In this document: positions 19,605 to 43,955 of the stretch, in pieces
Position numbering within the stretch: the stretch's first letter is position 1
How the letters are laid out: every line of letters starts with the position of its first letter
Assembly (NCBI GenBank): GCA_000004695.1
Contig: CM000152.2
Span: 2,720,001-2,784,000 of the forward strand
DNA: 64,000 nucleotides
Direction of reading: 5' to 3'
Origin: Dictyostelium discoideum
Lineage: Eukaryota
Made by a program: the position numbers and the translations under genes
Notes under the pieces: model-generated
Seen by the model: only the letters and a program-made list of their open reading frames with translations
Databases searched by the model: none
What the model was told of the DNA's origin: nothing

Positions 19605-19772
19605 GGAGGTAAGTGGAGGTGCGTAATACGCAACGACCACAGCTACCACAAATTGGTCAATTGAATTCTCGTAATTGAGAATCATACACAAACCAAACCG
19701 GTGTGCAATGGTCTGAAATTCATGCAATTAATATGCCTTTGTGATCACATATTAATATTGACAGGTAAGTAT
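19605..19772 (-). ncRNA. U1 spliceosomal snRNA gene (copy 1; 3' end +/-10 nt)
   Basis: The reverse complement begins ATACTTACCTG (the 5' splice-site recognition sequence) and contains the Sm site AATTTGTGG followed by a terminal stem (GTGCGTAATACGCAC). Base-for-base identical to the + strand copy at 43788..43955. Confidence 0.8.
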
Positions 19773-19827
19773 GAATTGTTAAGTTAAAAAGTTTTCATTC
19801 ATAAATTGATCACTTTTTCAATTAGAT

Positions 19828-19835
19828 TTATGGGT
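19828..19835 (-). promoter_or_regulatory. DUSE-like upstream element (ACCCATAA) at -56..-63 of U1 copy 1
   Basis: Sequence TTATGGGT on + strand = ACCCATAA on - strand, matching the Dictyostelium upstream sequence element consensus [A/T]CCCA[C/T]AA described about 60 nt upstream of snRNA/ncRNA genes. Confidence 0.5.
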
Positions 19836-20247
19836 TAAAAAAAATTAAAAAAAAAATTTTTATTTAAAAAAAAAAAAAAAATATAAAAAAATAAAAAAAA
19901 AATTTAATTTCAGAAATGGAAAATGTTTCTTTTTTTTTTTAACAGTTTTGTTTGAACCAGTTATTTTAATAATAAAAAAAAAAATTAACATAAATTGTTT
20001 TTTTTTTATTTTATTTTTTTTTTTTTCAACAAAACTAAATTTTAATAAAAATGTAAATTGCCAACATTAAACAATGATGATTTAATTTAATTTTTTTATT
20101 TTTTTTATTATTTTTTTTATTTTTTTTTTTATTTTTTTTTATTTTTTATTTTTTTTTTTTTTTTTTAAACTGGTTTGATGATCAAAATTTTTTTTTTTTT
20201 TTTTTTTTTCTTTTTTCATCTCGTATTTTAATTTACACAACAATAAA

Positions 20248-21470
20248 ATGTTCTCAAGATTTGCTCGTGCTTTCCCAAAAATTTTAGCCTCAGGTGCTTC
20301 TCAACGTACTTTTGCTACCGGTTTGTATTATACTTTAAATAAAAACAAATAAAAATAAAATGAATTTGAAAAAAAAAAAAAAAAAAAATTCAGTTTCTAA
20401 TATTTTAAAATATTAATTTAAATTTCAGTTCAAAAGGCTTTTGCCAACCCAACTAGCAAAAAATTAATTGTTGGTAGCTCACTCCTCATTGGTTCCGCCT
20501 TTGCCACCACTTCTTTTGTTGCTTGTGAAAATAAATCAGTCCCATTAGTTGGTCTTCCAGGTACCAACCAAGAAAGATCTTTCATTGCTATTAAAGTGAG
20601 TAGTTTGTTATCTATTACATTTTTATATTATACCTCATTTATTAACATAATAATTAATTTTTATAATAATAATAATAATAATAATAATAATAATAATAAT
20701 AATAATAATAATAATAATAATAATAATAATAATAATAATAATAATAATAATAATAATAATAATAATAATAATAATAATAATAATAATAATAATAATAATA
20801 ATAATAATAATAATAATAATAATAATAATATAGCCAGATGGTATGGAATAGAAGAAATATATTGAAAAAAAAAGAAAAAAGAAAAAAAAATAATTATAAT
20901 TATTTGATGGATTTTTTTATTTATTTTTTTTTTACTAATTGAATTCAATTATTTATTAAAAAAAAAAATAGGTACCCAAAGAAGATTAATTGGTGAAATT
21001 ATTGCCCGTTTCGAAAAGAAAGGTTTCAAATTAGTTGGTATTAAAATCCTTGTTCCAACTCCAGAACATGCCGCCAAACATTATGAAGATTTAAACAAAA
21101 AACCATTCTTCAATGGTTTAGTTAAATTCTTCTCATCTGGTGCTGTTGTTGCTATGGTTTTCGAAGGTAAAGATGTTGTTAGAACTGGTAGAGTTTTAAT
21201 TGGTGCCACTGATCCATCTCAATCTGCCCCAGGTACCATTCGGTATGTATAAAAAAAAAAAAAAAAAAAAAAAAAAAAAGTAAAAAATCAATTAATACTA
21301 ATAATTCTTACAAAAATTTTTATAGTTTCGATTTATGTATTGAAACTGGCCGTAATATTATCCACGGTTCAGATTCAAATGAATCAGCTGCTCATGAAAT
21401 CGCTTTATGGTTCAAAGAGGACGAAATTGCCAACTGGGTTTCAACCAATCCAGTCTATGAAAAAATGTAA
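20248..21470 (+). CDS. ndkM: Nucleoside diphosphate kinase, mitochondrial precursor. Exons 20248..20320, 20429..20595, 20834..20840 (7-nt microexon), 20972..21242, 21326..21470
   Basis: Product [33 protein letters not shown]...[23 protein letters not shown]|PDG|[137 protein letters not shown]. Canonical NDK motifs plus the N-terminal mitochondrial presequence, as I recall for D. discoideum NdkM. GT/AG at all junctions. Confidence 0.85.
20646..20830. repeat. (AAT)n microsatellite, about 60 units, inside an ndkM intron
   Basis: Uninterrupted aataat... run. The track ORFs 20596..20865(+) and 20661..20948(-) are just its poly-N/poly-L translations. Confidence 0.9.
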
Positions 21471-21740
21471 ATAGTTCAATAAACAACAATTAATATAGGT
21501 TTTTAAAAATATAAAATATATATATTCTTAATGTTTTTTTCTTTTTATATTTTATTATTATTATTATTTTTATTTTTTATTTTTATTTATTTTAAAAATT
21601 TAAAAAAAACCATAGGTAATTATTATAATATATTGAAGGAGAAGAGGAAAAAATATAATAAAATTTATTATAAATTGATTGTGTGGAAATAAAATATTTA
21701 CAAATTCATTGAGATTTTAATAATCCAATTATTAAATTCA

Positions 21741-42081: not shown

Positions 42082-42285
42082 TGTATTTCTATTTTTTTTT
42101 TTTTATAAAAATAGAAATTATCAAACCTTTCCTTTTGTAGTGTTAAAATAAATAAATGAAAAAAAAAAAAAAAAAAAAAAAAAATTAAAAAAATCTTTTC
42201 ACACAACAAAAATTTCGTTTTTCATTTTTTTTTTTTTTTTTTTTTTTTTTTTTTCCAATCCACAATTAATATTAAGATAATAATA

Positions 42286-43560
42286 ATGAGTATTATAAAT
42301 AATGAAGTACCAAATAATAAAATATTATTAAAAAGGATAACAGTTGATCCAAATGATAAAGAACAAATTGAAAATTTTAATAAAAATTTTATAACAAATC
42401 ATGTTTTTAATCAAAAAGTTGAAATTATATTACCAATTAAAAAAGGAGCAAATGAAGAAGTAGAAGAAGATAATAATAATGAAAGTGATAAAAAATCACA
42501 ACAAAAACCAAAAGCAAAAGGTAGTTTATTATCACAAGCATCATCATCATATTTATTAGTTGAAGGTGAATTTACAAGTTTATTTCAAGAACAATCAATT
42601 ACACCATTACCATCATCATCAAATAATAAATCATTAGATGGAATTAATACAAAACAATTATATTATCAAATTGAAACAACATTAGATTTATTATTATCAC
42701 ATGAATTTATTGATAAATATATAAAGAATGGTGGATTTTATGCAATTTCACAATTGAATTTCATAGATTCTGGTAATGTTGTAGCATTTTTACCAAATTC
42801 AAAAATAATATTAAATGTTGATAAAGAAACCTATCAAGAATTAGGTTTACTTGGTAAATCTTCAGTTTTTAAGAATTTACAAAGATACATCATCACATTG
42901 GATATGACAAGTAAAGAATATCAACGTGGTTCAAAATCATATACTCGTTTAATTTGGTCATTAAAAGATAGACTATCATCAATCAATTTAATTTGTTTTT
43001 ATCAAAAACTAAACTCAACCCAATTACAATCAATTGATTTCCCTCAAGGTGTTAAAGTTTTACCATCATATAATCAACCAACTCAAGAAATTCTAAATTT
43101 ACGTTTACCAACTTTAAATATAATAAATGAAAATTTAAATATAAATAATAGCAATAATGATATAAAAATGATTTATAATGATTTTATAAATGAATGGGTT
43201 GAAGTTTTAGGATTTGCAAGTTTAGGTATAAATTTAAATCAAGTTAAAGATTTTGAAATTGGTAATTCGTTATTATCACAATGTCCAATAGCAACAAAAT
43301 GTTTAAAGGCAACTCAAAAAGGTTTGGTTTCAAATAGTTTTATTTTAGAATTGATCGAAAAAATTAAATTAATGCTTTCAAAAGGTTTAATTGAATATGG
43401 TGTTTTAAATATTTATGGTTTCGCTGATACTCCAATCTCTTGGAATTCAATTGAACATAATTTTCTATATGGTGGTGAAAATGATCAATCACTTTTAATT
43501 TTACCAAATAATAAATTCATTTCTTCAAATTTAATTGGTACTTATGATTATTATTGTTAA
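42286..43560 (+). CDS. rpp40: Ribonuclease P/MRP protein subunit Rpp40
   Basis: ETTLDLLLSHEFIDKYIKNGGFYAISQLNFIDSGNVVAFLPNSKIILNVDKETYQELGLLGKSSVF and NIYGFADTPISWNSIEHNFLYGGEND align motif-by-motif with my recollection of human RPP40 (LPLHELITPEFISTFIKKGSCYALTYNTHIDEDNTVALLPNGKLILSLDKDTYEETGLQG... / VQGFADSPVSWEKNEHGF.KGGEH). Single exon. Confidence 0.75.
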   Translation: MSIINNEVPNNKILLKRITVDPNDKEQIENFNKNFITNHVFNQKVEIILPIKKGANEEVEEDNNNESDKKSQQKPKAKGSLLSQASSSYLLVEGEFTSLFQEQSITPLPSSSNNKSLDGINTKQLYYQIETTLDLLLSHEFIDKYIKNGGFYAISQLNFIDSGNVVAFLPNSKIILNVDKETYQELGLLGKSSVFKNLQRYIITLDMTSKEYQRGSKSYTRLIWSLKDRLSSINLICFYQKLNSTQLQSIDFPQGVKVLPSYNQPTQEILNLRLPTLNIINENLNINNSNNDIKMIYNDFINEWVEVLGFASLGINLNQVKDFEIGNSLLSQCPIATKCLKATQKGLVSNSFILELIEKIKLMLSKGLIEYGVLNIYGFADTPISWNSIEHNFLYGGENDQSLLILPNNKFISSNLIGTYDYYC

Positions 43561-43724
43561 AAAAATAAAAAATAAAAAATAAAAAAAAAAAAAAAAAGAT
43601 AATAATAATATTATTTCAATTCTATTTTTAAATTTTTCATTTTTTTTTATTTTTTTTTTAATTATTTTTTTTTAATTTTTTTTTTTGATTTTTGAAATTT
43701 TTTGAAAAAGAAAAAAAAAAAATA

Positions 43725-43732
43725 ACCCATAA
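43725..43732 (+). promoter_or_regulatory. DUSE-like upstream element ACCCATAA at -63..-56 of U1 copy 2
   Basis: Same motif and spacing as at copy 1. Confidence 0.5.
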
Positions 43733-43787
43733 ATCAAATTTAAAAAGTGGTATAATTAAAAATGAAAACTTTTTAACTTAACAATTC

Positions 43788-43955
43788 ATACTTACCTGTC
43801 AATATTAATATGTGATCACAAAGGCATATTAATTGCATGAATTTCAGACCATTGCACACCGGTTTGGTTTGTGTATGATTCTCAATTACGAGAATTCAAT
43901 TGACCAATTTGTGGTAGCTGTGGTCGTTGCGTATTACGCACCTCCACTTACCTCC
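43788..43955 (+). ncRNA. U1 spliceosomal snRNA gene (copy 2; 3' end +/-10 nt)
   Basis: Starts ATACTTACCTG; Sm site AATTTGTGG at 43906..43914; terminal stem-loop. Identical to the reverse complement of 19605..19772, including about 25 bp of flank on each side. It lies 228 bp downstream of the rpp40 stop. Confidence 0.8.

Follow-up and report, generated by a model that had tools for sequence, protein, structure and literature searches.

Two U1 small nuclear RNA (snRNA) genes lie 24 kb apart and in inverted orientation within a 64-kb window of Dictyostelium discoideum chromosome 3 (contig CM000152.2, the whole stretch analysed here; G+C 21.4%), and they are identical base for base, raising the question of how two dispersed copies of a small RNA gene come to be the same. 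The original prediction, made from the DNA of this window, offered either gene conversion or very strong purifying selection as the reason. The comparison with four relatives reported here leads us to consider it very probable that the genes are an old duplicate pair kept identical by gene conversion, with purifying selection on the RNA added.

The spliceosomal RNAs U1, U2, U4, U5 and U6 have been identified in D. discoideum, according to PMC3188802, PMC7919456 and PMC11193728, which cite Hinas et al. 2006, and Table 2 of PMC11193728 (citing Hinas 2006) gives 17 snRNA genes for this organism. A supplementary gene-name table (PMC3188802) has 18 D. discoideum names beginning 'rnu' (snRNA). The U1 genes and their Dictyostelium upstream sequence element (DUSE) are already known and are not new here, and the copies in the window are almost certainly the very genes of the published D. 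discoideum snRNA set. What is new, as far as we have seen and to the extent of the Dictyostelium literature checked, is the comparison of the two loci across species. Hinas and co-workers are said to have found in 2006 that 17 snRNA genes are expressed, that all are preceded by a putative promoter, and that U1 carries a trimethylated cap; a stable U1 of ~160 nt that enters the U1 snRNP is likewise attributed to their study.

The two U1 genes

A scan of the window with Rfam models at their curated gathering thresholds found three RNA genes, i.e. one tRNA and two U1 genes (RF00003), the latter being:

19612..19772, minus strand: U1 snRNA copy 1, ndkM-linked; RF00003 at 78.1 bits (gathering threshold 69.5), E 1.3e-17, model positions 1-166 complete.
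43788..43948, plus strand: U1 snRNA copy 2, rpp40-linked; RF00003 at the same score, with the same sequence as copy 1.

The RNA is 161 nt long in either copy. The earlier assignment to U1 holds, both loci scoring as complete U1 above the cut-off in the covariance-model scan, with all of the named hallmarks present. The 5' end, AUACUUACCUG, is exact at RNA positions 1-11 and is unpaired in the Rfam alignment, in which the loops of stem-loops I and II (SLI and SLII) read GAUCACAAAG and CAUUGCAC, respectively, in both copies; these loops hold AUCACNAAG, the U1-70K site, and AUUGCAC, the U1A site. The Sm site, AAUUUGUGG, is at RNA positions 119-127, between SLIII and SLIV. All four stem-loops (SLI-SLIV) are present in the aligned Rfam structure, with 4 non-canonical pairs, and a single-sequence fold reproduces the Rfam-aligned stems. 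Covariation gives the fold no support among five dictyostelid sequences (0 compensatory pairs; 7 variable columns, mostly in loops), because these U1 sequences vary too little. By their sequence, the genes in the window are the U1 spliceosomal snRNA genes of D. discoideum.

The sequence 3' of both genes lacks a run of at least four T; the 3' flank is therefore not a terminator for RNA polymerase III (Pol III) and fits RNA polymerase II (Pol II), by which U1, on the analogy of U1 genes elsewhere, is probably transcribed. The RNA would pair through its 5' ACUUACCUG with 5' splice sites and would assemble with Sm, U1-70K-type and U1A-type proteins.

Extent of the identity between the copies

The identity passes beyond the RNA on both sides, and lies within a somewhat longer repeated unit:

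19582..19799, minus strand: arm 1 of the identical tract; 218 nt exact, from -27 to 30 nt past the 3' end; putative gene-conversion tract.
43761..43978, plus strand: arm 2 of the identical tract; 218 nt, the exact reverse complement of 19582-19799.
19582..19837, minus strand: arm 1 of the whole repeated gene unit; 256 nt, from the DUSE to +30 past the 3' end, 97% complementary.
43723..43978, plus strand: arm 2 of the whole repeated gene unit; 256 nt, 97%.

The tract is made up of 27 nt upstream, the 161-nt RNA and 30 nt downstream. Its length of 218 nt had been predicted correctly, although the span then given (43763..43980 and 19580..19797) is 2 nt off, and the approximately 25 bp of identity expected beyond the RNA on each side are measured here as 27 nt upstream and 30 nt downstream. 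The promoter flanks had been described as diverged, which is the case from the DUSE to -28 but not for the proximal 27 nt, which are identical too. From -65 to -28 the D. discoideum copies differ at 8 of 38 nt, a divergence of 21% that is like the between-species level; the change from 0 mismatches in 218 nt to 8 in the adjoining 38 nt is abrupt (Fisher p = 1.2e-7). Past the 256-nt unit there is no convincing similarity, the ungapped identity of 41-51% being read, without a shuffled control, as background for AT-rich DNA.

The predicted base-for-base identical, inverted pair, an exact reverse complement over the 218 nt, is seen in three D. discoideum assemblies. In GCA_054883475.1 both 256-nt arms are exact, and the surrounding 1.4 kb differs by indels. 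GCA_054859355.1, from a D. discoideum strain, has two inverted U1 genes 24.4 kb apart, an rpp40 protein of 428 rather than 424 aa, and a copy-1 promoter differing from that of AX4 at three sites; its paralogue tract is exactly 218 nt long, with boundaries as in AX4.

The same loci in other dictyostelids

Orthologous loci were reached through 90% protein clusters (e.g. that of spliced ndkM), giving a 7-locus U1 alignment from five species. The comparison of the rpp40-linked copy 2 covers D. discoideum and D. citrinum; the clusters of the copy-2-side genes (ABC transporter, ESCO-like, PH, ABCD and rpp40) gave these two only.

D. citrinum has one U1 gene 224 nt after rpp40 (L002:11535-11695) and a second between DUF7906 and ndkM (L014:5402-5562), the arrangements rpp40-U1-PH and DUF7906-U1-ndkM thus being common to D. 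discoideum and D. citrinum. Since both loci are occupied in D. citrinum, the duplication predates the split between these two species. An ndkM-linked U1 is present in all five species, i.e. D. discoideum, D. citrinum, D. cf. discoideum, D. dimigraforme and D. firmibasis; no U1 was found within 10 kb of the rpp40 loci of P. violaceum and T. lacteum. The differences between the two loci and the two species are distributed as follows:

RNA (161 nt): D. discoideum copy 1 versus copy 2, 0; D. citrinum copy 1 versus copy 2, 0; D. discoideum versus D. citrinum copy 1, 2; D. discoideum versus D. citrinum copy 2, 2.
Positions -27..-1 (27 nt): D. discoideum copy 1 versus copy 2, 0; D. citrinum copy 1 versus copy 2, 5; D. 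discoideum versus D. citrinum copy 1, 9; D. discoideum versus D. citrinum copy 2, 4.

Positions 71 and 73 hold the fixed RNA differences between D. discoideum and D. citrinum; D. cf. discoideum is intermediate there, and D. firmibasis has the D. citrinum bases at both. Because D. firmibasis shares these states, A71 and C73 are derived in both D. discoideum copies. At positions -27..-1, D. firmibasis differs from the other species at 15-16 of the 27 positions (15 from D. discoideum), and the region is polymorphic between two D. citrinum strains, which argues that this proximal promoter is weakly constrained. In this region the nearest sequence to D. discoideum copy 1 is its paralogue, followed by D. 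citrinum copy 2, with its own orthologue more distant.

The identical paralogue tract is 218 nt long in D. discoideum compared with 181 nt (-10 to +10) in D. citrinum, where the U1 copies lie in direct orientation on a single contig, 82 kb from one another (JBTAPK010000045.1, at ~1.268 and ~1.350 Mb) and are still identical over those 181 nt. When positions -65..-28 were used as an orthology test, D. cf. discoideum copy 1 proved to be of the copy-1 type (4 versus 10 differences); the same test gave no clean copy-1/copy-2 signal in D. citrinum and D. firmibasis.

Among these close relatives, the variation within U1 falls in the protein-binding loops. The D. dimigraforme U1 (L016:9470-9630, 71.3 bits) has AUAGCAC for AUUGCAC in the SLII loop (the U1A-type site), and that of D. 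firmibasis (L015:9393-9553) has AUCAUCAAG in place of AUCACAAAG in the SLI loop (the U1-70K-type site).

Promoter element and 3' flank

The elements that flank the RNA within the repeated unit are:

19828..19835, minus strand: DUSE ACCCATAA of copy 1, at -63..-56 from the first U1 base.
43725..43732, plus strand: DUSE ACCCATAA of copy 2, at -63..-56 from the first U1 base.
43949..43978, plus strand, and 19582-19611, minus strand: conserved 30-nt 3' flank TACCTCCTCCCATTTAATTTAATGAAAAAA, a putative 3'-end formation or termination signal.

A DUSE had been predicted at -56..-63 in both copies, and it is there in each, matching the consensus [AT]CCCA[AT]AA, which sits ~60-63 nt upstream of Dictyostelium non-coding RNA (ncRNA) genes (PMC3188802, PMC7919456). 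At ~60 nt upstream the DUSE is associated with Pol II and Pol III genes alike, and the expression of Class I RNA correlates with its presence (PMC7919456). The octamer ACCCATAA is not enriched in the window (5 found versus 3.75 expected); the DUSE carries weight because of where it lies within the repeat and because other species conserve it, not through motif frequency. It is conserved at -63/-62 in six aligned ndkM- or rpp40-linked loci of four other genomes, those of D. citrinum (both loci), D. cf. discoideum, D. dimigraforme and D. firmibasis; the DUSE of D. citrinum copy 1 reads TCCCATAA, and that of the rpp40-linked orthologue is at -62..-55.

The three other matches to ACCCATAA in the window (6079-6086, minus; 7084-7091, minus; 50270-50277, plus) were rejected as ncRNA promoters, their count being at chance level and no Rfam match lying downstream of them. 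The first two fall inside an open reading frame (ORF; 5856-9716) that is histidine-kinase-like as judged from sequence, and the third is in DNA that is not AT-rich.

The 30-nt 3' flank shows 0-4 differences from D. discoideum in 30 positions across the other four species, beyond which the downstream DNA is unalignable, and we infer that it is a signal for 3'-end formation or termination. Constraint on the Dictyostelium snRNA unit falls on the DUSE, on the ~10 nt immediately preceding the start, on the RNA itself and on ~30 nt downstream of it. We read each gene as a compact unit of ~256 nt comprising the DUSE at -63..-56, the proximal promoter, the 161-nt RNA and the conserved 30-nt downstream element.

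Proposed gene conversion and the alternatives to it

The pattern of differences between D. discoideum and D. citrinum is, as read from the aligned loci, that of concerted evolution by gene conversion, and not that of selection alone or of a recent duplication. The same two loci are occupied in two species, the paralogues are closer to one another than the orthologues are, and the identity forms a discrete tract with sharp edges. What makes this a signature of gene conversion is the combination of a sharp tract edge with an identity at weakly constrained sites that is confined to the D. discoideum paralogues. Intrachromosomal gene conversion would keep the ndkM-linked and rpp40-linked duplicates identical, and in the D. 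discoideum lineage the last conversion would have overwritten the sequence from -27 to 30 nt beyond the 3' end, with the rpp40-linked copy 2 probably the donor into copy 1. Both U1 copies are probably expressed.

Were purifying selection alone responsible, old duplicates would have stayed the same without exchange, all 218 positions being constrained. The invariance of the RNA within species, its 1-7 differences per 161 nt across the five species and the conservation of the 3' flank would all suit such an account, but the 57 flanking nt within the tract are not strongly constrained: positions -27..-1 show 4-9 differences in 27 relative to the D. citrinum copies, 15 relative to D. firmibasis and 5 between the D. 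citrinum paralogues, in addition to the polymorphism between strains. Selection acting on its own is made quite improbable by this, by the derived A71 and C73 common to both D. discoideum copies, and by D. discoideum copy 1 being nearer to D. citrinum copy 2 than to its own orthologue. The perfect identity over 218 nt could also mean that one D. discoideum copy is too young to have diverged. This is refuted by the occupation of both orthologous loci in D. citrinum and of the ndkM-linked locus in all five species, and by the adjoining 38 nt having diverged by 21% between the copies, as much as between species, so that a recent duplication is left very little room. That one U1 gene was placed twice during assembly would account for the perfect identity and for nothing else; it has practically no chance of being correct, being refuted by the unique flanking genes and by the presence of both copies in two further D. 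discoideum assemblies and in D. citrinum. A different possibility is that a single copy is active, the other being a silent passenger homogenised by conversion from it. The 8 differences in 38 nt from the DUSE to -28 and the unrelated distal flanks would agree with this, as would the fact that identical RNAs are indistinguishable in ordinary RNA-seq. We nevertheless think it unlikely, given a perfect DUSE at the same distance in both copies, the DUSE-type motif and intact gene that D. citrinum keeps at both loci, and the conservation in five species of the ndkM-linked copy, which argues for selection on that copy.

Several points weigh against the conversion of an old pair as we propose it. 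The counts are small (2 RNA substitutions, and 4-9 differences in 27 nt), and a direct comparison of paralogue with orthologue differences in the tract reaches p = 0.007 only. Conversion is read from a pattern, no event having been observed, and selection evidently contributes, with the RNA invariant within species and the 3' flank conserved across species. The U1 count covers the 64-kb window, and further copies elsewhere in the genome are possible. Among the few genomes available there are no polymorphic conversion tracts, and two D. discoideum strains share both the tract and its boundaries; the last conversion would therefore predate the split of these strains. Thus, of the original prediction that the identity reflects 'ongoing gene conversion or very strong purifying selection', the part concerning conversion is favoured by the comparison with four relatives, with selection as a second force, whereas the word 'ongoing' is unsupported.

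A synteny breakpoint at U1

D. firmibasis, which is an outgroup to the other species sampled, has a different arrangement around its ndkM-linked U1. On CM069765.1 the order is two ABCD transporter genes, MRP-L27, PH (minus), U1 (minus), ndkM (plus) and two AhpC/TSA genes. By tblastn, L015:1-8868 corresponds to 54.5 to 44.8 kb of the window, reversed, and L015:10084-13607 to 20.4-24.0 kb; L015 6688-8868 (minus) matches the PH gene at window 44789-45682 with 91% amino-acid identity. Within L015:8776-10000, one U1 gene thus joins ndkM, on the upstream side of copy 1, to the PH gene, on the downstream side of copy 2. The flanks agree in local alignment, the downstream flank of the D. firmibasis U1 best matching that of copy 2 (score 270 versus at most 101) and its upstream flank that of copy 1 (125 versus 92). 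The recognisable flank homology adjoins the PH start and the ndkM start, which places the breakpoint within an interval of ~0.7 kb centred on U1.

An inversion of the DNA lying between the two inverted U1 genes would leave such a junction; of the two junctions expected, this one is seen. Whether the two inverted U1 genes mark both ends of a ~24-kb ndkM-to-rpp40 inversion is a proposal on which we are evenly divided. Crossing-over between pre-existing inverted U1 copies may have flipped the segment in one lineage, in which case the recombination would be the same process that keeps the U1 copies identical; or staggered breaks around a single ancestral U1, arranged PH-U1-ndkM as in D. firmibasis, may have created the inverted duplicate.

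The region has been rearranged in other ways as well. In D. citrinum the block comprising a protein kinase gene, ESCO-like, ABC transporter, rpp40, U1 and PH has been turned round with respect to ndkM, at a distance of ~82 kb and with breakpoints elsewhere than U1, and the collinearity of D. firmibasis with the window ends after the second AhpC gene. The D. citrinum inversion breakpoint is past a tRNA-Val gene, beyond or within a block of surface-protein and CfaA_B_C genes. Published work (PMC11193728) describes 'large inversions' that distinguish D. discoideum chromosome 3 from D. firmibasis chromosome 1, and the D. firmibasis breakpoint at U1 is a testable lead on how small repeated RNA genes may shape these published inversions. 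If the proposal is true, chromosome rearrangement in social amoebae would have been driven by, or would have produced, a 256-nt snRNA unit.

Neighbouring genes

The protein-coding genes next to the two U1 copies for which coordinates were established are:

20248..21470, plus strand: ndkM, mitochondrial nucleoside diphosphate kinase; divergent neighbour of copy 1; Pfam NDK match.
42286..43560, plus strand: rpp40, RNase P protein subunit; upstream neighbour of copy 2; Pfam Ribonuc_P_40, E 4.9e-66.
44702..46927, plus strand: PH-domain protein gene; downstream neighbour of copy 2; Pfam PH.

Copy 1 had been placed between a divergent ndkM and a downstream gene, and copy 2 at 228 bp past the rpp40 stop. 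Both placements are borne out: ndkM starts at 20248 (plus), the downstream neighbour of copy 1 encodes a 641-aa DUF7906 protein, and copy 2 starts at 43788, 228 nt past the end of rpp40 at 43560. The rpp40 ORF product matches the AX4 RNase P protein subunit of D. discoideum with 100% identity. The spliced ndkM product, of 220 aa, exactly matches a D. discoideum entry of equal length (KAM9967983.1) and shares a 90% cluster with AX4 P34093. This match and clustering are those of the protein with a 7-nt micro-exon included (CCAGATG at 20834-20840, plus), whose seven bases supply Pro, Asp and the first base of Gly within the conserved KPDG motif; most of the preceding intron consists of ~200 nt of (AAT)n.

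Genes for a 629-aa lipoxygenase and the 641-aa DUF7906 protein are called at corresponding places in five dictyostelid assemblies. Homologue searches with a lipoxygenase exon (15211-15999, plus) and a DUF7906 exon (17035-17700, minus) gave no match, which looks like a matter of search sensitivity or a gap in the index, not biology.

Beside ndkM are tandem AhpC/TSA (peroxiredoxin-like) paralogues of 151 and 152 aa (window ~21741-24000, minus), followed by a 74-nt tRNA-Val(AAC) gene at 25400-25473 (plus). A 74-nt tRNA of the same score lies 3' of two AhpC/TSA genes in D. citrinum (L014:11217-11290), D. dimigraforme (L016:14809-14882) and D. cf. discoideum (L017:14981-15054); no counterpart was found in the corresponding 10 kb of D. 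firmibasis. Paralogous serine/threonine-rich surface-protein genes at 25921-27258 (minus) and 30436-31692 (minus) flank a CfaA_B_C-domain gene at 28541-29485.

A pattern scan of metagenomes for dictyostelid-type U1 returned three contigs only, all non-dictyostelid (U1 at 147 bits, U2-linked), and these were set aside as irrelevant. Contigs ERZ1740052 and ERZ1740058 (L011:1-907 and L012:1-871) carry linked U2 and U1 genes ~560-650 nt apart, the U1 scoring 147 bits, from a non-dictyostelid eukaryote.

Comparison with known systems

Inversions bounded by inverted repeats arise by non-allelic homologous recombination or by duplicating staggered breaks, and in Drosophila, as Ranz and colleagues reportedly found in 2007, staggered-break inversions create inverted duplications at the breakpoints. 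The arrangement described here resembles such cases in that the D. firmibasis U1 joins the gene upstream of copy 1 to the gene downstream of copy 2; it differs from them in that a single junction of the pair is seen here, in a region that has further rearrangements.

The Pol II snRNA genes of metazoans and plants have promoters with proximal and distal sequence elements (PSE/DSE) or an upstream sequence element and TATA box (USE/TATA), and a 3' box ~9-19 nt downstream. The Dictyostelium U1 gene is similarly compact, its upstream element being set at a constant ~55-65 nt and a second conserved element following immediately after the mature 3' end, with TACCTCCTCCCATTTAATTTAATGAAAAAA being a candidate 3' element that is likened to the 3' box by position only. 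In contrast with the metazoan and plant promoter elements, the DUSE sequence is dictyostelid-specific and serves both Pol II and Pol III genes (PMC7919456). With the DUSE-driven snRNA genes already described in D. discoideum (Hinas et al. 2006, Eukaryot Cell 5:924; Aspegren et al. 2004), the window copies share the organism, the RNA, the upstream element and its distance, and as genes they show no point of difference.

That multicopy snRNA genes evolve in concert is a general pattern (Pavelitz et al. 1995, 1999; Mount et al. 2007; Marz et al. 2008), of which PMC4291461 gives a summary, and the identity of the two U1 genes follows this general rule. In the families covered there, as here, paralogues are closer than orthologues, and flanks diverge while the gene is homogenised. 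By comparison with those families, Dictyostelium U1 is a minimal family of two copies, dispersed and with no tandem array, and both of its loci are recognisable by synteny, so that the conversion tract (218 versus 181 nt) can be read directly. The value of the case is thus its clarity: with two members at loci that can be traced by synteny, the putative conversion tract, its likely direction and its boundaries become readable.

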